DNA of 64,000 nt. It comes from Pecten maximus. Lineage: Eukaryota. A program made the translations under genes and the position numbers. Where the stretch lies: assembly GCF_902652985.1 (NCBI RefSeq), contig NC_047018.1, forward strand, positions 34,286,001 through 34,350,000. The letters are read 5' to 3'. Shown one piece after another: positions 7,120 to 52,895 of the stretch; position 1 is the first letter of the stretch; the number at the start of each line of letters is the position of its first letter. Below the pieces are notes generated by a model. The model worked only from the letters and a program-made list of their open reading frames with translations, searched no databases and was not told the DNA's origin.

Positions 7120-7407
7120 CTCTATACATTATTTATCTCTAGTTATTGACACGAGTAATATGAGTCATAAGTGATGCTTTGACCTTAATCCAATTACATC
7201 TTTCAGATTTGTTATCTAAAACTGATACGGAGGTTGAGTCTCGTAAATAGCATTGAAATTAAACTTTGATACACACGTGCGTGTACAACGACCCGGAAGT
7301 AGGTGGTCTGAGGCCAAAGTATAATTGTGGTCTGAGGCATATAGGTATATAGGTCTCTGCTGAGGCCAACTACGCCTGAATAGAAAACATCATAATTAAT
7401 TGAAAAC

Positions 7408-8657
7408 ATGGATGGACCAACATTTTTCTACCACGCAACTTCAGCAGGAAATGAAGCTCTGATAAAACAAACAAATATCCTGATGCCACATCGATACAAT
7501 CCACCCGAAGACTGGATGATGATGGTTAGTAATGAACAGCGCCATCTGGTACCTAATGGGGTGTGGTTCTGTGCCACGCTCTATGATGGGGATCTGCCAA
7601 CGATTTCTCCGCTTGGTACTAGACGGGTGAGGATTGATATAGCAAACGTCATAAAGCAACTTGGAGGAAATGTGAAACTGTATGCAAGAGTAACTAATCA
7701 AAAAGTTGGAGACAACTTCTATACCAGGTTGATGCTCGTGAAAGAAGGAGAAAATTTTGAAATTTTGAATCACATGTCTCAGCTGGATATTGCCGAAAAT
7801 CAGTGGTTAACACTGACTGGTGAATACAGAGTTGCGCGTAGACCAATCTGGGTGTATATCTACATCCCGTACCAGATCGATGTCAGTAACTGTGACTGGG
7901 ATGAGGTGAGGTATGTATATACAACATATTAGAGGTGACAGAAGGCTGACAAATTATATATTTGTTTTAATGTCTTCGCTAGGTATCAAACCTCTGCATG
8001 GCTTATAATTTAGACTTCCGCTTAACCAATCAAGATAAAGAGAAGTTAATTCACTGTAGCCGAACAGTATATAATTTATTATTGCAACTGATTATATAAT
8101 TTACCAGGTTTGATTACACTAAATCTCGGGATGCTCCAATTTGAAGTGAATTGATCAGACTGCTGTCTTCACAGAATCTCGATGAGTTCTACAATTTTTA
8201 ACAGCTTGAAAAAACAGAAATCATGTATTTGTCTGTGGTCCCAAGATTAACGATTAAAATGAATGTCTTCACTATATGCCAATGTGATTTAAGTGATAGT
8301 TATATTGTATTATTATAATCTATATCTGAATCTCATATTCTGGTTATGTAAAGGTGTTCAATATAGCTATTCATGCACATATACTGGTATAAATAACAAT
8401 TTCTTTGTTACAGATACGTGCCAAGGGTTGTTCATCCCAGAGGCGAGGATGAGACCACAGGCGAGGATCAGACCACAGGCAAGGATCAGACCACAGGCAA
8501 GGATCAGACCACAGGCGAGGATCAGACCACAGGCAAGGATCAGACCACAGGCGAGGATCAGACCACAGGCGAGGATCAGACCACAGGCAAGGATCAGACC
8601 ACAGGCGAGGATCAGACCACAGGCGAGGATCAGACCACAGGCGAGGATGAGACCTGA
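7408..8657 (+). CDS. PHYHIP C-terminal-like domain protein (possible ADP-ribosyltransferase fold) with an acidic GEDQTT-repeat tail; exons 7408-7910 and 8414-8657
   Basis: The 174-aa ORF contains GVWFCAT..GDLPTISPLGTRRVRI, YTRLML and LDIAENQWLT, resembling PHYHIP-C motifs as I recall them (GxFFSC..GQPPQDSPYGRxRF, LDIACNKFLT). Donor AG|GTATGT at 7910 and acceptor TTCTTTGTTACAG| at 8413 are phase-compatible and join to ORF 8418-8657. Confidence 0.65.
8440..8654 (+). repeat. 18-bp tandem repeat, ~12 copies, probably coding
   Basis: (GGC RAG GAT CAG ACC ACA)n encodes G-E/K-D-Q-T-T. Confidence 0.95.
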
Positions 8658-15933: not shown

Positions 15934-17344
15934 ATGATTACAGTATTCAATGTTTTGGTGATAATGTACTCGAGTATATCGGGAGTCCAAACTTCTACGA
16001 GACTTGATACACAAGTCTTACATGACAAACTTTTACAAACATACAACAAAGATCTCGGACCTAATTTCAACCAATCGCAACCAATTCTTCTTCAACTGTC
16101 GTTCAATTTGTTCACTCTCAACGAATTCGATGATATAGCCGGAAAACTTGTGTTCCTTGGACTTTCAAACATTGAATGGCGGGACGACAGGATGGTCTGG
16201 AATCCCCTTGAACATGGAAACACAACTACAGTGATGATGCCACAGTCTAAGGTATGGATCCCACATCTGTTCGTTGCAAAACCACATACTAATGTGAAAA
16301 AGATTGGGTATGATTTCGTACAAGTAACATACACTTCTGACGGATGGGCACGTTGGGCTGTCCCAGACTTGTTTGATATTTCATGCACAGCAGATATAGC
16401 TTACTTCCCTATGGACCGACAAAAATGTGAGATATACATCAGTCCCTGGTCATACGAGGAAAGTACATTTGATTTCAGACTTCCACTTAATACTATGACA
16501 CAAACTGATTTCGTCGAAAATGGTGCTTGGAAGATTCTCTCAACCGAACTGTATGTAGCCCAACATATAGATAATGAATATGTCGTTATGGTGATAAACT
16601 TTCAAAGACGTCCCCTTTTCATAATACTGAATCTTCTCCTGCCAATACTAGTAGTTGAAGTGTTGAACGTGTTTGTTTTCCTTCTTCCTCCCGATCCGGG
16701 AGAGAGGAGTGCGTTTGGAGTAACTGTGCTGCTCTCCATGGCAGTGTTTCTTTCTATTGTGTCCGACAAATTGCCCAGCACATCAGACCCACACATTGCC
16801 CGTGTTTCAATATACATTGCTGCTGAACTGACACTTAGTGCGTTGATTATGTTATTTGCAATGATAAGCCTTTTACTGTACAACAAGCCAGACGATCAAC
16901 CTATCCCGGGGTGGATCAGACGACTTGTGTCAAAACGTTCCAAACAGCAGAAACACAAACAACGAGACCCACGCGTACATAGACATATGGACAACCCTGA
17001 AGTTGATGTTCGCAGAGGTGTAAAACGAAGTAACCAGGGAAATGGCCGTTACAAACATGGAATAGACTCAATTGAAATATACAGAGGATATCACGTTGAA
17101 CAATTAAGACTCGGAGAACACCAATGCAGTTATACCCAGGACTATAGAGACCCTCCATACACCAGTTCTGAAGATCTGTGTGAAGGGTCAACGGATGTAG
17201 AGGATACACCAATCGTAACATGGAATGATGTTGCTAAAGTGGTTCGACAAATTCTGTTTGGCTTTATTTTCATTCTTAAATATAGTTATCATTGCAGCGA
17301 AAGGAATAGACACTCTTAGTTATTTGAATAATGTGACAATGTAA
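15934..17344 (+). CDS. Intronless nicotinic acetylcholine receptor-like (Cys-loop) subunit, non-alpha, copy 1; TM4 frameshifted in this assembly
   Basis: Signal peptide, WxDxRMxW, VWIP, Cys-loop CTADIAYFPMDRQKC, ENGAW, TM1-TM3 with GERSAFGVTVLLS. The ORF stops at 17319, but removing an extra A at ~17237 and at ~17280 restores WNDVAKWFDKFCLALFFILNIVII ending at TAA 17344, matching copy 2. Confidence 0.93.
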
Positions 17345-17828
17345 CATGTTATTGAACAAAATACTCTCACTCTAATGTAAAACTCATCGATTATTAAACA
17401 ATAGTTGGAATCAATACCTCTTTCATCTTGTTGTTGATTTAGGGGTTATCCACAAAATAAATATACAAGTTTTAAGGGAGCGTTTTATTATTTATATCGA
17501 GATTTTCGAAAAACAGGATAAAACAAGAGAATACTGATGTAATACCGAAATCATAATTTAACTCAAGATGGATAAACCAGGGCAAACTATGAATAAAAAT
17601 CTAAATTTGCGCGGACACCCTTGGAAACTTACAAGGAAAGAAGACCGTGTGTTTCAAATTAGTGAGCAATAAAATGCATTGTAAACAATCAATAAGCATG
17701 GGAACAACCTACATAAATGTATAAATAAAAATGCAATATAATATCATTTACTTTGTGTATTAGTTAAACTTAGGTAAATCTGGTTTAAATACATATCTTT
17801 ATTATCACTCCGTTACATAGATCATCTA

Positions 17829-17943
17829 ACAACATTTTCTGATAACATTTACCCCAGACAACATTTTCTGATAACATTTACCCCAGACAACATTTTCTGA
17901 TAACATTTACCCCAGACAACATTTTCTGATAACATTTACCCCA
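17829..17943. repeat. 29-bp tandem repeat, 4 copies
   Basis: (ACAACATTTTCTGATAACATTTACCCCAG)4. Confidence 0.95.
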
Positions 17944-19281
17944 TCCGTCGTTGACTATCAAGACGAATTGTCACTTGGCCATGTCAATTTCACCAATTTA
18001 ATTCGTCACATCGTGCAGGTAATTGAAGGCTACTTCGGAAACTAAAGGCTACTTGGGACGAAATTACTTCAGACATTGTTAGGATTAACTATTTCGGACA
18101 TCGAAAATTCACTTCAAAAATTCTGAAAGTAGTAATTGAATTGGTCAATACAAAAGGTCATCGGAACGTGACCCTAATGGATGATGTCTGATCCTCTTTG
18201 TAATTGAGTGCGAATAAGGATCAGCAATTTAATCAGATTGCACTTAAGTACAAATACATAGAATCATTAGTTGGTTTGATATCACATGTTCTATCCAAAA
18301 ATCTGACTCTATCTTAATACAAAAAGTGATCATTTAATCAATGGATATCTACATCAATATAAGGAATGTAGCAAATGTAGAATTACCGTTTCTGAAAACC
18401 ATGTTTGCGAAGTTGGCATCGCATTCAATTTCCCCACTGAGTAAACGGTAATAATTTACCCTGCCGCAAAGGGAAACTATGAAGGTAAACAAAGTTAATG
18501 TTACGTTGTAAACTCTATTATTGAGTTTAACTAAACACTAACAACATAATATTCTTTTCTCGATCCTCAACTTTTGAGGGATTGTACATTAGACACACAA
18601 AGATAACCACCAGATACAGTAGGAACCAAGAATAACTGAAACTGCGCAAACATTATTTCGTATGACTTGTCAATGGTAACTGAGTTTTGAGTGATGATTA
18701 AAGCTATATATGGTAGTAATAAATAATTCAATTACCACCAATTTATTTCACAAAACACACGTGATTTCTAAATTTATACACCGCCACATACAATTCATAA
18801 CATACATGTAGTAACAGTACCATAAGCAAGACCGTAAGACCGATAAAAATATCCATCACTTCAAAGCTAAGATAGATGGGTTGCTATAAATAAATAATGA
18901 AAAATTTACTGTGACTGTTTCTATATTACCTAATACGTACATACACCATATGAGAATCATGTCATGGATACATGTGAATTCAAAAATAAAATTTTGTAAA
19001 ACTTTGTTTTCTCAGTAATATATAGGAAATATAAAATTGGAAGGATTTTAACGGCCTGTGTGGTTCATAAATCGATTGAATAGAAAACTTTGCGTTATAT
19101 TTACGATATACATAGACGGTGTTAAGTCATGTGCAACGAAGCGTAAAGCCTGCTTTATAAATACGTATGCTATACAACAGTGTCAATTTTACTGAGATTG
19201 ATGTATATTAAGCTGTTCCGTCACTCAGAAGGCTTTTCCCTGAGTTCTCATTCTATCGATCAGCAATTCAAGATTTAAGAT

Positions 19282-20682
19282 ATGTTTGGAGTTTATAATA
19301 TTTTACTGGTGACAGCGTGTGTTTGTTTAAATGGGGTCCAAAGCACAACAAGAGACGATGTACAAAAGTTAAACGACAAAATTTTGAATGAGTACAAAAA
19401 AGATCTCGGACCGAATTTCAACCAGTCTCAACCTATTGTCCTTTATATACAGTTTAATTTGTTTACACTCAACGAGTTTGACGATAAAGCCGGAAAGCTG
19501 GCATTTCTGGGATATTCCAGCATTGAATGGCGGGACGACAGGATGGTCTGGAATCCTCTTGAACATGGAAACACAACTACCGTGATGATTCCACAGTCTA
19601 AGGTATGGATCCCACATCTGTTCGTTGCGAAACCATATACTGATGTGAAAAAGATTGGGTATGATTTCGTACAAGTAACATACACTTCTGACGGATGGGC
19701 ACGTTGGACCGTCCCAGACTTATTTCAGGTTTCATGCACAGCAGACATAGCTTACTACCCTATGGACCGACAAAAATGTGAAATATACATCATTCCGTGG
19801 GCATACGGCAAAGGTACATTTGATTTCAGACTTCCACTCGATACTATGACACAAAATGATTTCGTCGAAAATGGTGCGTGGAAGATTCTCTCAACCGAAA
19901 TGCATGTATCGGAACACAGTGATGGCGATTTGGTCATAATGGTGATAAAATTTCAAAGACGTCCTCTTTTCATTATACTGAATCTTATCTTGCCAATAGT
20001 AGTAGTTGCTGGGCTCAATATTTTTGTTTTCCTTCTTCCTCCGGATCCGGGAGAGAGGAGTGCGTTTGGAGTAACTGTGCTGCTTGCCATGGCGGTGTTT
20101 CTTTCTATTGTGTCAGACAAACTGCCAAGTACGTCCGAACCTCACATTGCTCGCGTGTCTGTGTTCATCCTCTCTGAACTCATTGTCAGTGCCCTCATCA
20201 TGGTCTTCACTGTGTTTACGCTGATATTGTACAATAATAAGGATGATAAACCGATCCCTGATTGGATGAAACGTTTTGTCTTGAGGTGTTCGAGAAGAAA
20301 GACAACTGTGAAGAAAGGGGCAAGGAATGATGATGATGTCATTGAACCAAATAGAACTGATCCGAGATACTGGCGTTCCGAAAACGACCGGTATCATCGT
20401 GATAACACGGTATATGGTAAAAACAGAGGGTATCCTAATGAAAATACTGACCGAAGACACCATGAACCTTTACAACAAAAGGCTAACCAGAGCAATAGTC
20501 GACATACGGCTCCAGAAGGCCCGGTAGAATTGGCAGCAGACGACACAAATACGACTGTTACATGGAACGATGTAGCCAAGTGTTTCGACAACGCTTGTCT
20601 GTTGTTGTTTATATTCCTCAACGTTTGTATTGTTGTTATTGAAATCATAGACTCTGCGTATTATTGGAATACTGACTTTTGA
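19282..20682 (+). CDS. Intronless nicotinic acetylcholine receptor-like (Cys-loop) subunit, non-alpha, copy 2, intact 466 aa
   Basis: Signal peptide, Cys-loop CTADIAYYPMDRQKC, four TM segments, GERS before M2, WNDVAKCFD before M4, no vicinal CC in loop C. Confidence 0.96.
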   Translation: MFGVYNILLVTACVCLNGVQSTTRDDVQKLNDKILNEYKKDLGPNFNQSQPIVLYIQFNLFTLNEFDDKAGKLAFLGYSSIEWRDDRMVWNPLEHGNTTTVMIPQSKVWIPHLFVAKPYTDVKKIGYDFVQVTYTSDGWARWTVPDLFQVSCTADIAYYPMDRQKCEIYIIPWAYGKGTFDFRLPLDTMTQNDFVENGAWKILSTEMHVSEHSDGDLVIMVIKFQRRPLFIILNLILPIVVVAGLNIFVFLLPPDPGERSAFGVTVLLAMAVFLSIVSDKLPSTSEPHIARVSVFILSELIVSALIMVFTVFTLILYNNKDDKPIPDWMKRFVLRCSRRKTTVKKGARNDDDVIEPNRTDPRYWRSENDRYHRDNTVYGKNRGYPNENTDRRHHEPLQQKANQSNSRHTAPEGPVELAADDTNTTVTWNDVAKCFDNACLLLFIFLNVCIVVIEIIDSAYYWNTDF

Positions 20683-25287: not shown

Positions 25288-28200
25288 ATGGCTTGTCTAC
25301 GAGCAGAAGACTGTAAGTTTCTTAAAAACAGTTGTATAAGAAAACGTTGGTGCTCCTCATTATTTTTCCGACAGACAATTCATTTGTTATTCTAATCTGC
25401 TAACTGAAACAAAACCACTAAATGTTGTGTAATATAACTTCACTGCTCTAGCCTGAACCACCAAAGTCTTGGGACTGTTGGACTAACAAAGGGTACTGTA
25501 GCCTATACTCCTATAACATAAGAGGCCGCTGGTCGGCTCTTTTTCTATCGGATATTATTTTGCCGACTGTTACACGGCGCCTGTCAAAAGTATCTCGCCG
25601 TGTAAAACCTCTAACATTGTTGGAGTACTGTAGCCTACTGTACTGTAGTAAATCAGGATCAGCTGATCATGACCACTCGGGCACTAGTAATACAACTGGT
25701 ATAAAAGGAAAGATGAGTCAGTGCCCAATGCTGATGTGGTAAAGTAGCTAATGGGCCAATAGCCTAAGCACAATTATGGCTTAATTTTTTATAAGCCTCT
25801 GTTAGTGAAATGACAGCTGAATGTTGTATATATTCCCTCTAAATATGCAGTTTGACATGTGATTTATTTTGTTTTTGTTCATTTCATTGGGATTGATTAA
25901 TGCCAAAAGATGTCTTGTGAAATTTTTTTTTCTTGAAATTCATTTCATAATAATTTTGCCTCTTCTATGTGATGGACGTGGTTTCTTTCTTGTAACTTAA
26001 GAATTTTACTTCTTCCCAAAAACAATGGGACATTGTATACTGAAACGAAAAAGAAACGCAACTTCAAATTGTAGGTTTAATAAAATAATACTTGTGAGCA
26101 TTATGTTTAAATTTCATATGTAATAGTTAATATTGAATATTGATGTAACATCCTTTAAATGTTTAGAGATTTTTAAGAACAGGTCACTTTGCTAGAAGGT
26201 CATGATTGGTAGTACCCTACGTGAATCCAAGTTGAAATGGCAGCAGTTTTGAAACCGTGCCCTAATATCGTGTGTGTCCTCCTCGAACAGTTATCACATC
26301 TCTAATTCTTTGTTGCATTGAGTTCATCAGGGCATTGACTTTCCGTATTGGAATGTTATTCCATTCTTGGACGAGTGCATTTGCTAACTGAGGGAGGGTA
26401 TTTGGGGGGTTACGGCGATTTCGAATTCTTCTGTCTAATTCATCCCACAAATGCTCGATTGGGGACAGGTCGGGGCTATATGGAGGCCAATCTATAGGAA
26501 CAATGTTCTGTGTCGCAAGAAAGTCTCTACAGACTCTTGCAACGTGTGGTCTCGCGTTATCTTGCTGAAAGGTTAGATGATGCTGCCTAACAAACGGCAC
26601 AACATGGGGCCTAAGGATCTCATCCCGATAGCGTACGGCCGTTAAATTCCCATTGACTATCACCAAAGGCGTCTTCAAACCATGGGAGATTCCCGCCCAA
26701 ACCATAACTGATCCACCCCCAAATCGGTCGTGTTCCAAAACACAGGCGTCAGCAAAACGTTCGCCTCGACGCCGGTACACACGTTGACGGCCATCTGCTC
26801 GAAATAACGTGAATCGAGATTCATCGGTGAAGAGCATAGACCTCCAACGTCTCATAGGAAAACGTCTGGGCATATGTGCCGTTGCCCATTGCATACGACG
26901 TGCTCGACGTTGCGGTGTTAGTGGTAAACCAACGTACTGTCGCCTTGCACGCAAATTAGCCTCACGCAGTCTGTTGATCACTGTTTGGGGATGAATTCGA
27001 CGGTTATGATTACCAATCGTATTCCTTGCCGTTTCAGCGGCCGTTAATCTCCTGTTACGCAGGTGTGCCAACCTAAGAACCCGGTCTTGACGTCGCGACG
27101 TTACGCGTGGACGTCCTGATCTCGGCTGGTCATCGACTCTTCCTGTTGCGTTAAGACGTGAAACTAATCGACTAATAGTCGATTTGTGAACTCTGAATTG
27201 TCGAGCGACGTGAAGTTGCGTGTTCCCTGCCAGAAGCATCGCTATAGCACGTCCTCTATCAACCTTTGATAACCGTGGCATAATTGTAAAAGGAATTATT
27301 GTTTGCAAAAGTATTGGCGATGATGTGGCTCAATGTTAGTGATGAATTGATACTGGTTTGAATGAAAAAAGAACGCATATGTTTGTACAGGCACGGTTTT
27401 TGATGTTTTTACCGCGCCGGAAGTGCATAGGTCTCTAGTCACACTTGGGTGATTTTGAAGATTGGTATGGGTGTTAGGCAGGGTGCATGTTTATTTCCGC
27501 GATTTTTATACAGATATGTATATTTAATACAAAATTAATCACAATTTTCCATGTTGCGTTTCTTTTTCGTTTCAGTATATATATAAGTTTTTGGAAATTC
27601 CTAAGTGATGTCTGACTTGAGAAACAATGTGGAATGTTATAATGTCAATCTTGTGCAAGAAGAGTGGAAAAATGCACAGCCAGACCGGGGTTCGAACACT
27701 AGCCGGATGTTCTAGCTATGTACCAACTGAGCTTCCCGGGTCGCCAATGATTGACCTTCTTCAGTCCTACTATAATCTTCCCTCCCTTTTAAAGTCTTCG
27801 ACCCTGCAGAAGACCTAACAGCTCACTACCCAGGTTCGGTTATCATCTTGCCAAATATTCACCTCACTTCAAACAAGGTGTAACAGGAGAGGATAAAATG
27901 TAGCGGCCAGACTGGGCTTCGAACCCGGGACTCTGAATACTAGCCGGATGCTCTACCAATTGAGCTACCTGGTCACTGATGATCGACCCAGTCCAGTCCT
28001 GCTACACACCTCCCTCCTTTTTTCCAAGTCTTCGCCCTCGAAGACACACAAGACCCTTATACCTCCACCGTGGGTATTTTAGTTGGGCGCCAATTTTGTA
28101 ACAGGAGAGGAGAAAATGTAGTGGCCAGACCGAGGTTCGAACCCGGGACCCCCGAACATTTGAGCAACCTGGTCACCGATGATCGACCCAGTGAGTCCAG

Positions 28201-48440: not shown

Positions 48441-50938
48441 TTAAATAACTTAGGATATGAACTTTGGATTTGGATATTCATGTACCACACACTTTCAACA
48501 CACCTTTTTATAAAGCTGTTGTATTTAATATCTAGGGTAGGATGGGTCCTCATACAATGGTATTGATACCCATTAAAGAATATTTTCCATGTAATAATTA
48601 AAACTCTCATAAGGCAAAATGAAAAAAAACAAAAAAAACTATAATTTTACATCTCACGATATAGTTTTACAACAGTTTCTGATCATGATTATACAGTCCA
48701 ACAGTTAGCGTGTCTAATAATCTAAAATCACAATGTTATGTATATAAAAACAGATTCACATGTGATAGCAAACCCTTCATTGATACCTTGTGGGGGCAGT
48801 AACAAGTCATATAGGTTTGAATAAGTTCTGTACACATACGTATTGTACACATACATACTGTTCACATAGTTACTGTAGGTACATTTATAGGTTTGGGTCA
48901 CACAGCATATCGTCAATAACATGTTGGAATGCTTAGAAGTTACTCCAGAAATATAAATATACTAACATAACACATGTATTCCTCAGTGATATGTTCTAAA
49001 TGAAAACCCTTCATCTGTACTTTTTGGAATTGAAGTACCAATTCATAAGGATTTAAACCATGAATATACAATTCACAACAATTTAAATATCTCTCCATCT
49101 GTTGATCTTAACAATATGTAATGAAGCAATAATTTAAATACAACACCATTTATCGATCTTAACAATATGTAGAGACATAACAAAGCAGAAGCATTATTTT
49201 ATGGCTGCAATAAAAATATAAAGATGAATCAAAAACTGAATTCATATATATTGATAAATGTAGAAGTCTAGTGGGTTATAAAGTAAAGTGTATTTCATAG
49301 TATCGGTACACACAAGATAAAATTATAAAATATATATATATAGTATGTAGATATTAAAAGGGACTCTAACAAAGAGACAAGGTTATTGAGCAGGATCTAC
49401 AGTATCTCGGAATATCTTAATCACAGACACAAGCTTCATGTAAAGTTATACTACAGAATATTCTATGCTTGTCTGTGGTATTATTCGTAGAGTTGTATAT
49501 TGAAGTAGATATGTAGTATAAAACATTTTTGTATATTAAAGTAGATATGTAGCATAAACATTTTTTGTATATTGAAGTAGATAATATGTAGTGTAAAATA
49601 TTTTTGTTATGCTGTAACAATACTAATACTTCCATTCTAAATAATTTTACAAAGAAATTTGATTAAAAAATTCCATATTATTTTTAAAAGATATAAATAC
49701 AATAATCTAATCATGCAGGACTCAGAGATAGACATATACAAACTTTGATAGTATTGGTATTGAAATAAATAAAAATACCATTATAATTGAGCATATATTT
49801 TTAAAAGTAGTTCTTAATTACACATAAAATATAAACCATCTATCAGTTAGTAGTTCTACGTTAGAAGACTATCTGTTGCCTTACAGCAATGAAGGTTCAC
49901 TGTGTACAGAATATATGCTGACATTACTGAAAAAGTGCTACATGCATATATACTAATTAATTGAATCTAAAAGGGGAACATTAATCACAACAAAATAGGG
50001 ACTGGTTTCCTTGTCTTGTCTACCAGTTTCACCTGAACATTGGCCTTGAAGGACAATGGAACCCACCTTTCGCCACTAATCATCTGGCATTGGCTCTGCC
50101 CGAGGACTTTATAGACTAATCAAATAAATGGTACAATTTGAATGACAGACCCTGTTTAAATATGATACAGGTGTACCCTAGTTTCAACAAAATTTCTTAC
50201 ATTATGAAAATTCTTTCATAGCTTAAAATTTTCTGTAGGAAACATTCCTGCAGAATTTAAGGGAAAATTCTATAACATGTTCCTATGAGAACATTTAAGA
50301 TAAGGAACATCCATAAAACTTGGGAAACATGGAACAACTCAACAAAGAGTTAAAATCACAGAAATTTTACTTCATGTGAAAACATGTGGAATTCATTAAA
50401 ATAAGGAATTTATGAAAACTCACTATCAGATTTATAGAATCTGGAAACACATTTGAATCATATCTAGTAAACTTCAAGCCTCTTTTAATTTTGCAGTTGT
50501 ATAACTATAATTCCTAACATGAATGTATTACACTGTTGTACAATAAACAACACTAGCTATACAATAAATATCAAACTAATATGTTCATTTCTAAAATAAA
50601 TCTGTCATTGAATAAATATGTTAACAAATAAATAACCAGAGAAAAAAAAACAATATAGAATATCAAATAAGAATAATCATGTTACCCATTGTTCTGGAAT
50701 GTCATTGGGAAAAAAAAGTAAGATTCATATTTTGATTTTATTTGATATTATCTACCGGGTAAAAGTTTTGTTTATATTTTTGTAATAAGTGTGTCTTTGT
50801 AAAAAGAAAGACAGCAAACTCAGTTAAAAATTCCATAAAGCTAGCCTTTCCATCAAAAGTAAGTTTGTTACTGAATTCACTTAAAGTTCACAGTTAAAAT
50901 GACAAATTATAAATCACCCATATTGAAATATTAAAAAT

Positions 50939-52895
50939 GGGACTTTTCTGTGGTTTTCTGTTGATGATGTTGTCTATGTTGGGACTTTTCTGTGGTTTTC
51001 TGTTGATGATGTCTATGTCGGGACTTTTCTGTGGTTTTCTGTTGATGATGTTGTCTATGTCATGACGTTTCTGGTGTTTTCTGTTGATGATGTTGTCTAT
51101 GTCGGGACTTTTCTGTGGTTTTCTGTTGATGATGTTGTCTATGTCAGGACTTTTCTGTAGTTTTCTGTTGATGATGTTGTCTTTGTTGGGACTTTTCTGG
51201 TGTTTTCTGTTGATGATGTTGTCTATGTTGGGACTTTTCTGTTGATGATGTTGTCTATGTCGGGACTTTTCTGTGGTTTTCTGTTGATGATGTTGTCTTT
51301 GTTGGGACTTTTCTGTGGTTTTCTGTTGATGATGTTGTCTATGTTGGGACTTTTCTGTGGTTTTCTGTTGATGATGTTGTCTATGTCGGGACTTTTCTGT
51401 GGTTTTCTGTTGATGATGTTGTCTATGTCGGGACTTTTCTGTGGTTTTCTGTTGATGATGTTGTCTTTGTTGGGACTTTTCTGTGGTTTTCTGTTGATGA
51501 TGTTGTCTTTGTTGGGACTTTTCTGTGGTTTTCTGTTGATGATGTTGTTCTATGTCAGGACTTTCTGTGGTTTTCTGTTGATGATGTTGTCTTTGTTGGG
51601 ACTTTTCTGTGGTTTTCTGTTGATGATGTTGTCTTTGTTGGGACTTTTCTGTGGTTTTCTGTTGATGATGTTGTCTATGTCGGGACTTTTCTGGTGTTTT
51701 CTGTTGATGATGTTGTCTTTGTTGGGACTTTTCTGTGGTTTTCTGTTGATGATGTTGTCTATGTTGGGACTTTTCTGTGGTTTTCTGTTGATGATGATGT
51801 CTATGTCGGGACTTTTCTGTGGTTTTCTGTTGATGATGTTGTCTTTGTTGGGACTTTTCTGTGGTTTTCTGTTGATGATGTTGTCTATGTCGGGACTTTT
51901 CTGTGGTTTTCTGTTGATGATGTTGTCTTTGTCGGGACTTTTCTGGTGTTTTCTGTTGATGATGTTGTCTTTGTCGGGACTTTTCTGTGGTTTTCTGTTG
52001 ATGTTGTCTATGTCGGGACTTTTCTGTTGATGATGTTGTCTTTGTTGGGACTTTTCTGTGGTTTCCTGTTGATGATGTTGTCTTTGTTGGGACTTTTCTG
52101 GTGTTTTCTGTTGATGATGTTGTCTATGTCGGGACTTTTCTGTGGTTTTCTGTTGATGATGATGTCTATGTCGGGACTTTTCTGTGGTTTTCTGTTGATG
52201 ATGTTGTCTTTGTTGGGACTTTTCTGTGGTTTTCTGTTGATGATGTTGTCTTTGTTGGGACTTTTCTGTGGTTTTCTGTTGATGATGTTGTCTATGTCGG
52301 GACTTTTCTGGTGTTTTCTGTTGATGATGTTGTCTATGTCGGGACTTTTCTGTGTTTTCTGTTGATGTTGTTTTTGTTGAGACTTTTCTGTGGTTTTCTG
52401 TTGATGATGTTGTCTATGTTGGGACTTTTCTGTTGATGATGTTGTCTATGTCGGGACTTTTCTGTGGTTTCTGTTGATGATGTTGTCTTTGTTGGGACTT
52501 TTCTGTGGTTTCTGTTGATGATGTTGTCTATGTCGGGACTTTTCTGTGGTTTTCTGTTGATGATGTTGTCTTTGTTGGGACTTTTCTGTGGTTTTCTGTT
52601 GATGATGTTGTCTTTGTTGGGACTTTTCTGTGGTTTTCTGTTGATGATGTTGTCTTTGTTGGGACTTTTCTGTTGATGATGTTGTCTTTGTTGGGACTTT
52701 TCTGGTTATGTTGTCTTTGTTAGGACTTTTCTGGTTATGTTGTCTTTGTTGGGACTTTTCTGTGGTTTTCTGTTGATGATGTTGTCTATGTCGGGACTTT
52801 TCTGGTGTTTTCTGTTGATGATGTTGTCTTTGTTGGGACTTTTCTGTGGTTTTCTGTTGATGATGTTGTCTATGTTGGGACTTTTCTGTGGTTTC
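50939..52895. repeat. 42-bp minisatellite, ~47 copies, directly 3' of the DHCR24 stop codon
   Basis: Unit GGGACTTTTCTGTGGTTTTCTGTTGATGATGTTGTCTWTGTY. Confidence 0.97.

Follow-up and report, generated by a model that had tools for sequence, protein, structure and literature searches.

Two tandem, intronless genes for non-alpha subunits resembling nicotinic acetylcholine receptors (nAChRs) lie on the forward strand of a 64,000-nucleotide stretch of the Pecten maximus genome (positions 34,286,001 to 34,350,000 of NC_047018.1, hereafter the window). At a probability of roughly 0.5, we favour the reading that they are intact paralogues whose cation-channel subunits respond to some ligand that is not acetylcholine; gene conversion would have homogenised their middle part, and selection would have kept parts of the predicted ligand-binding pocket different. 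Both genes are single open reading frames (ORFs) with a start-to-start spacing of 3.35 kb, and no further nAChR fragments were found within the window by tblastn. The genes and the motifs that define them are as follows.

15934..17344, + strand: gene 1, an intronless non-alpha nAChR-like subunit of about 469 amino acids after discounting an extra base in the assembly
17236..17239, + strand: the extra base, just before the fourth membrane segment (M4) of gene 1, located by DNA alignment of the copies and absent in four of four sequencing runs
19282..20682, + strand: gene 2, an intact intronless non-alpha nAChR-like subunit of 466 amino acids with a signal peptide, an extracellular domain (ECD) and membrane segments M1-M4
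16699..16707, + strand: cation-type G-E-R motif 5' of M2 in gene 1, aligned to G-E-K of alpha7
20050..20058, + strand: the same motif in gene 2, likewise aligned to G-E-K of alpha7

Gene structure and the acetylcholine site

Both proteins score above the curated cut-offs for PF02931 (Neur_chan_LBD, 113-115 bits) and PF02932 (Neur_chan_memb, 61-75 bits), and both carry a Cys-loop of 15 residues (C-x13-C, with Cys152 and Cys166). With glutamate at -1' and no proline at -2' before M2, both are cation-type by motif, their selectivity being a prediction. In its AlphaFold model (mean predicted local distance difference test score 77.9), gene 2 has a complete ECD sandwich and four membrane helices (228-251, 256-280, 291-318 and 428-463), and its loop C is a two-residue turn in a short beta9-beta10 hairpin. 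This model matches nAChR structures with Z scores of 30.6-31.5 and root-mean-square deviations (rmsd) of 2.9-3.1 over 351-357 residues; the nearest solved relatives by both sequence and structure are vertebrate nAChRs, and the ESM Atlas matches of the pair are generic ligand-binding-domain or nAChR clusters only. A preliminary description, made from the letters alone, had already recognised a tandem intronless non-alpha pair that lacks the vicinal cysteines of loop C, retains the loop B tryptophan and carries G-E-R before M2; all of this was confirmed for both genes, and the segment pairs that it quoted for loops D, A, E, B and C read exactly as claimed. Both genes are also present in the small, probably transcriptome, assemblies X10, X12 and X14 (that X5, X12 and X14 derive from RNA is a guess), which is a weak sign of gene expression.

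The preliminary description overlooked a frameshift in gene 1, which as assembled is a single-frame ORF of 461 amino acids (15934-17319, + strand) that stops at 17319 without M4. One base at 17236-17239 is missing from all four sequencing runs examined (four samples, four studies), and the read-supported frame leads into a hydrophobic M4 with its stop at 17342-17344. As the extra base is absent in each of these runs, it is an assembly error rather than a pseudogene lesion; both genes are intact, and the gene 1 model of this assembly is wrong at M4. A decaying pseudogene that had lost M4, and whose loop changes would result from decay, agrees with the frame as assembled, but it is rejected for the runs examined because the extra base is missing there, the frame beyond the shift can be aligned to M4 in both gene 2 and the orthologues, and two other genera have intact gene-1-type orthologues.

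Positions of the pocket were assigned by alignment to alpha7, and the two versions of loop D were located as follows.

16162..16170, + strand: loop D of gene 1, with Leu at the position of TrpD and of Tyr58 in the octopus chemotactile receptor CRT1, just outside the homogenised tract described below
19513..19521, + strand: loop D of gene 2, with Tyr78 at the same position

The five residues of the aromatic box (TyrA, TrpB, TyrC1, TyrC2 and TrpD), which we take to form the acetylcholine site, are largely replaced in the pair by Ala116 (TyrA), Gly/Asn215 (TyrC2) and Tyr/Leu78 (TrpD), while TyrC1 and the vicinal cysteines fall within a deletion that makes loop C six residues shorter than that of alpha7. 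Trp173 at TrpB, equivalent in gene 2 to W149 of alpha7, is the sole aromatic-box residue retained. The same residues are listed in passages of PMC7173930 and PMC10338036. The loss of TyrA, TyrC1, TyrC2 and TrpD makes acetylcholine gating unlikely, and from the alignment we consider it probably absent in both subunits, so that the earlier proposal of a non-acetylcholine channel stands as probable. The missing vicinal cysteines alone do not exclude such gating, since EAT-2 is reported to be an acetylcholine-gated non-alpha homomer that lacks them and keeps most of the aromatic box (PMC7173930).

The degenerate pocket is not peculiar to the pair but is family-wide among the 30 best-scoring paralogous loci of the genome: the vicinal cysteines occur in none of the 30 and G-E-R in all of them, TrpB is kept in 22, and TyrA and TrpD are absent in every one that aligns there. 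In the nearest sister genes (L004, L005, L006, P0009, P0011 and P0012) the loop B tryptophan is replaced by Ser, Thr or Tyr. Since 22 of 30 paralogues have this residue but the closest ones do not, its retention in the pair is weak evidence, and to judge from these alignments the clade does not depend on it.

Probable gene conversion and islands of divergence

Trees of the C-terminal part group the gene-1-type proteins of three genera together (ultrafast bootstrap support 96-99), a clade of the two window genes is rejected for this segment by the approximately unbiased (AU) test (p=0.0002), and the orthologous pairs in Argopecten and Ylistrum have consecutive RefSeq accessions. By these sequences, the duplication is dated before the split from Argopecten and Ylistrum. 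A recent duplication was rejected by the same C-terminal tree together with saturated synonymous divergence in the flanks, and no long shared repeat was found in the non-coding DNA flanking the two genes. Despite this age, the middle part of the genes is strongly homogenised.

16171..16770, + strand: homogenised tract of gene 1, attributed to gene conversion, corresponding to gene 2 codons 81-280 and delimited by the proportion of synonymous differences (pS)
19522..20121, + strand: homogenised tract of gene 2, codons 81-280, delimited in the same way

From about 1.15 in residues 23-82, synonymous divergence falls to 0.18 in 83-227; it is 0.2-0.3 up to 280 and saturated beyond. Codons 81-280 have a pS of 0.18, compared with 0.60 and 0.85 for the two flanks (Fisher p=2e-15), and the copies share identical runs of 65, 41, 38 and 36 nt. 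Identity over residues 83-168 is 92% between the window copies and 71-78% between them and five orthologues. The homogenised tract differs in each species, the Ylistrum pair being 98% identical in another tract, residues 23-82. Sites with a species pattern outnumber those with a gene pattern by 8:0 and 4:1 in residues 83-168, and the ratios are 0:4 and 0:10 in 281-345. Since only codons ~81-280 are homogenised in an old pair, interlocus gene conversion is very probably the cause, and recurrent conversion is the simplest reading. Collapse of the two copies during assembly is unlikely to account for the near-identity, as independent contigs of X1 and X5 agree with both copies without a single difference across 396 bases.

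Other young pairs in the genome, such as L015, L023 and L024 (G000:C1:32.54-32.55 Mb) and L016 and L017 (C8), have uneven synonymous divergence along their length (e.g. 0.08-0.32 and 0.04-0.41), and conversion may therefore be common across the family. The pair warns that near-identity of tandem copies in this family does not equal recent duplication, and that pairwise dN/dS values or ECD trees can therefore mislead.

Variation between individuals suggests that the process has not ceased.

16170..16430, + strand: mosaic-haplotype part of the gene 1 tract, where one contig carries gene 2 letters at five of six variants

This contig, from run X9, has a depth of 56.6, compared with ~30-37 for single copies, and its five gene 2 letters fall in a segment where only 14 of 261 positions distinguish the copies (the sixth variant is deduced from change counts). 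Run X14, from another study, carries the same letters and X12 has the block at codons 116-121, so that three studies are represented. Mixed haplotypes occur within phased blocks, and the copy differences at 121, 149 and 159 are non-fixed; in general, variation between individuals affects the differences around the tip of loop A, in beta6 and in the Cys-loop. Gene conversion looks ongoing. At loop B both types are listed in six of the seven runs examined, and at loop C both occur unchanged in three of four (pieces of X4 are not listed); the loop B and loop C differences are constant in every run with contigs listed there. The spacer between the genes contains a 29-bp tandem repeat (17829-17943) and two structural variants, a 62-base replacement at 17420-17483 in two of four runs and a 78-base deletion at 18245-18324 in three of four.

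The positions at which the copies remain different form several clusters.

16549..16587, + strand: loop C island of gene 1, with flank-level pS and several residues common to gene-1-type orthologues
19900..19938, + strand: loop C of gene 2, a two-residue turn without vicinal cysteines, TyrC1 or TyrC2
16441..16464, + strand: loop B difference cluster of gene 1, five of eight residues (171-178), none common to any orthologue examined
19792..19815, + strand: loop B of gene 2, containing Trp173
16636..16671, + strand: M1 difference cluster of gene 1, five of 12 residues (236-247), including an intramembrane Glu also found in the Argopecten gene-1-type protein

Loop C (207-219) has a pS of 0.53, against 0.15 in the remaining tract (p=0.01-0.03), and five gene 1 residues at 208-223 are common to gene-1-type orthologues only. 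With flank-level pS and residues exclusive to gene-1-type orthologues, loop C appears to behave as a conversion-resistant island of retained old divergence. The loop B changes, being common to no orthologue, look recent and specific to gene 1. We lean slightly towards selection as the force that would hold the differences in loop C, loop B, beta1-beta2 and M1 against conversion, by analogy with the genes for red and green opsins in humans, where a peak of divergence persists under gene conversion (PMC3924837). As in the pair, conversion is described there as having kept an old tandem duplication alike, while divergence persists near ligand-tuning sites; unlike in the pair, where coding sequence was converted and the island function is deduced, the opsins' converted parts are introns and the retained sites have a function that is proven.

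Loop differences and rival explanations

The preliminary description held that the pair differs mainly at ligand-binding loops, that the ECDs are otherwise near-identical, with changes clustered at loops D, A, E, B and C, and that the pockets are diversifying. With loop windows mapped from alpha7, differences occur at 20 of 66 loop positions of the ECD and at 20 of 139 others (Fisher p=0.007), and within residues 83-227 at 15 of 54 and nine of 91, respectively (p=0.006). Loop C (8/12) and loop B (4/9) drive this clustering, followed by G (3/5), D (2/7), F (2/10), E (1/13) and strict A (0/10); the change quoted for loop A sits 3-5 residues after the TyrA position. Clustering is thus real but modest, and applies mostly to C and B rather than to A and E. 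Near-identity holds for residues 83-168 but not for 23-82 (73%) or 169-227 (71%), and the loops are the main site of difference inside the ECD core only, as identity between the copies drops to 53% in M3 and to 29% in the M3-M4 loop, and M1 has its own cluster. Pocket-facing positions of beta1-beta2 differ more often than the remaining ones (5/12 vs 3/30, p=0.03). A set of 15 contact-equivalent pocket positions, which we presume to be the relevant ones, differs at seven, compared with 33 of 190 other positions (p=0.012), and the same test applied to eight other pairs gave p<0.05 in one. The claim of diversifying pockets was not substantiated: the pN/pS of the loops is 0.64-0.71, other young paralogue pairs of the genome have 0.12-0.81 in 10 of 11 cases (the eleventh has one non-synonymous and no synonymous change), and a finite loop pN/pS above 1 was found in none of these 11. 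Loop enrichment has the same direction in 13 of 13 other pairs, orthologue pairs included (odds ratio 1.24-2.78, p<0.05 in eight of 13; 2.59 for the window pair). As pN/pS is below 1 and orthologues have a similar enrichment, diversifying selection is not shown, and the loop contrast in the pair arises because conversion erased differences elsewhere in an old pair.

The strongest rival is a neutral patchwork, in which the loops are weakly constrained surface segments and already diverged patches mechanically resist conversion, so that the ligands of the two subunits need not differ; we regard it as possible, and as the less likely account. Several results favour it or otherwise weigh against selection on the pocket. 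In addition to the loop pN/pS below 1, the family-wide loop enrichment and the absence of the gene 1 loop B residues from every orthologue, a circular-shift control that preserves clumping made the clustering marginal (10 of 145 shifts equalled or exceeded the observed value, p ~0.07). Loops B and C vary among same-gene orthologues (5-10 of 12 loop C positions), and no gene-specific pocket is strictly conserved; the M1 cluster is equally dense and lies outside the pocket. On the conversion itself, protein trees of the ECD only do not reject the topology without conversion (AU p=0.16-0.24) and for the loop C segment neither pairing is rejected by the AU test. Contig assembly pops short bubbles, so that phase is proven only in blocks of sites less than 31 nt apart. 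What speaks for selection, by contrast, is that the differences of loops B and C are invariant in the runs listed, unlike those in beta6, the Cys-loop and the tip of loop A, which vary from one individual to another, that gene-1-type residues of loop C are kept in two genera, and that the beta1-beta2 changes occupy pocket-facing positions.

A second rival treats the genes as structural non-alpha partners of true alpha subunits, with which they would build acetylcholine-gated receptors whose kinetics, assembly or allosteric sites they adjust. The absent alpha motif, the cation-type M2 and the best whole-length matches, which are vertebrate nAChRs, are compatible with such a role, as is the observation that M1, M3 and the cytoplasmic loop differ between the genes more than the pocket does; in addition, bivalve gills are reported to express many nAChRs together with acetylcholinesterase (PMC6896357). 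However, TrpD of the complementary face is replaced by Tyr or Leu in the pair and is absent in all aligning paralogues among the 30, which would make for a poor acetylcholine site. The genome also holds at least 85 such stop-free matches, and only 13 of 132 oyster receptors are reported to keep the full principal site (PMC6896357). On balance this role is rather unlikely.

A third rival is common descent with the cephalopod chemotactile receptors (CRs), octopus CRT1 and squid CRB1, the pair then being bivalve members of a CR or CR-like clade that sense poorly soluble or microbial compounds. A CR-like clade that takes in bivalves is reported in section 3.4 of a 2026 preprint (PMC13174522). The N-terminal residues 24-103, a segment picked post hoc, have CRB1 and CRT1 as the top three of 49 PDB matches (28.5-29.1 bits, against 21-23.5 for alpha7). 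Tyr78 of gene 2 (Leu in gene 1) aligns with CRT1 Tyr58, a reported ligand contact (bioRxiv 2025.03.03.641191) and the only one aligned among the CRT1 pocket residues Y58, W122, F124 and F192. Most comparisons point the other way. Over the whole ECD, CRT1 scores 61 bits and vertebrate nAChRs 70-89, and by structure the CRs reach Z scores of 22-23 (rmsd 3.7-4.1 over 289-314 residues), compared with 30-31 for nAChRs. No CR was found among the best 60 of 314 (whole protein), 387 (family profile) or 87 (residues 122-173) matches, by which kinship is not excluded, and the loop E contact positions of the pair are polar (Arg141 and Thr/Ala143). With similarity rankings in conflict, this descent is a possibility to which we give a low probability.

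At the level of features, CRT1 (8EIS, 9E6B) and CRB1 (8EIZ) are, like the pair, clustered atypical nAChR-like subunits without acetylcholine motifs, clustered atypical subunits being reported from octopus suckers (PMC9068888), and they share with gene 2 the Tyr at the loop D contact and are the best matches of the N-terminal 80 residues. Unlike the pair, they have 22-23% identity to it by structural alignment, score below vertebrate nAChRs over both the ECD and the whole protein, and are reported to be under positive selection, while the pair is without evident aromatic loop E contacts. A paper on bivalve tentacle transcriptomes gives CRs as known from cephalopods only, and its accessible part does not mention nAChRs (PMC11682238). 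Alvinella Alpo4, EAT-2 and invertebrate DopC resemble the pair as nAChR-like cation-type subunits with non-canonical pharmacology; EAT-2 is described as acetylcholine-gated, Alpo4 as an orphan and DopC as monoamine-gated (bioRxiv 2025.04.02.646353). Compared by features rather than by orthology, Alpo4 and EAT-2 keep most of the aromatic-box residues, unlike the pair with its single TrpB. By such analogies, a CR-like working mode or DopC-like monoamine gating of the pair is possible.

Returning to the reading of non-acetylcholine subunits with selectively protected pocket parts, either subunit would form, by itself or within mixed pentamers, a shallow open pocket at the subunit interfaces, with a short loop C and TrpB as its floor. 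The two pocket versions would differ in ligand preference or in the choice of partner, and ligand binding would open a pore for Na+ and K+. The subunits may act as external chemosensors in gill, mantle or tentacle, although we hold this for less likely than not; the chemosensory or immune function put forward in the preliminary description is a candidate one. It is more speculative still, and rather doubtful, that the pair forms a two-receptor module for chemical sensing kept over at least three scallop genera, in which recurrent conversion would re-standardise the scaffold and selection would protect two pockets, in the manner of the opsins. If this were true, the islands would chart, as a natural mutagenesis experiment, which residues set specificity in an orphan bivalve family of ~100 channels, and these channels would be the bivalve counterpart of the octopus taste-by-touch receptors.

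The bivalve family and the surrounding sequence

The genome holds at least 92 matches to the family (91 of 270 candidates were scored), 85 of them without an internal stop; together with the single ORFs and the tandem arrangement, this bears out the earlier assignment of the pair to an expanded intronless family of bivalve nAChR-like genes. Jiao et al. 2019 (PMC6896357) described such intronless, tandemly arrayed genes in bivalves, two-gene arrays being the commonest, counted 138 in the scallop Mizuhopecten yessoensis and already suggested the binding of diverse ligands. The pair resembles the genes of that account in being an intronless, non-alpha two-gene tandem array with a ligand-binding and a transmembrane domain and a degenerate acetylcholine site. 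It differs in that the passages of that paper at hand describe neither gene conversion nor conversion-resistant pocket islands, and no functionally characterised member. The family and the non-acetylcholine hypothesis are thus already published, and what is added here is the observation of conversion and islands, the mechanism as such being familiar in evolution; in the portions of the open-access literature covered, gene conversion in these nAChR-like channels was not found, the nearest mentions concerning protocadherins or inversions.

The closest named proteins belong to three scallop genera (55-73% identity), and beyond scallops there are three matches at 33% among the 15 proteins matched, a set in which other taxa are poorly sampled. 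The orthologues are XP_069128588/9 of Argopecten irradians, XP_060073713/4 of Ylistrum balloti and OWF48894 of M. yessoensis, and no Mizuhopecten gene-1-type protein is among the 15 matches. They have the same motifs as the pair and, to judge by the consecutive accessions in Argopecten and Ylistrum, the same paired arrangement; their labels (nAChR beta-3-like, alpha-6-like or beta-like) are automatic best-hit names. The ligands of the at least 100 non-alpha bivalve nAChR-like genes are presented as an open question in the accessible parts of PMC6896357 and PMC13174522, and the pair does not answer it. It is, however, an unusually clean test case: conversion has cleared most background differences from the ECD core, so that few residues would need to be swapped to look for a ligand difference, namely those in loops B, C and D/G and in M1.

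Elsewhere in the window, an ORF on the + strand at 7396-7932 is stop-free over 178 codons and has no Pfam match. In the ESM Atlas it resembles hypothetical clusters from phages and bacteria at 0.95, and among named clusters it comes closest to ADP-ribosyltransferase-like ones (DarT/PARP at 0.93 and Arr at 0.90), with recognition falling slightly short of the threshold; it has 14 matches in the genome, many of them with stops. The closest paralogues of this ORF (68-71%) and of the nAChR-like pair (42-47%) lie at G000:C10:31.62-31.64 Mb and C10:31.86-31.92 Mb, and their distance of ~230 kb on C10 hints at a shared history of duplication or transposition for the window block and that region. On the - strand, 26262-27329 is a stop-free ORF for a Tc1/mariner-type transposase (DDE_3 and HTH_Tnp_Tc3_2 above cut-offs), and 3-1990 contains overlapping long frames of 422 and 274 codons, the longer without a Pfam match, which give the impression, and only that, of a broken transposon gene. 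A long low-complexity tandem array with a strong strand skew extends over ~50900-52400 and yields spurious ORFs.

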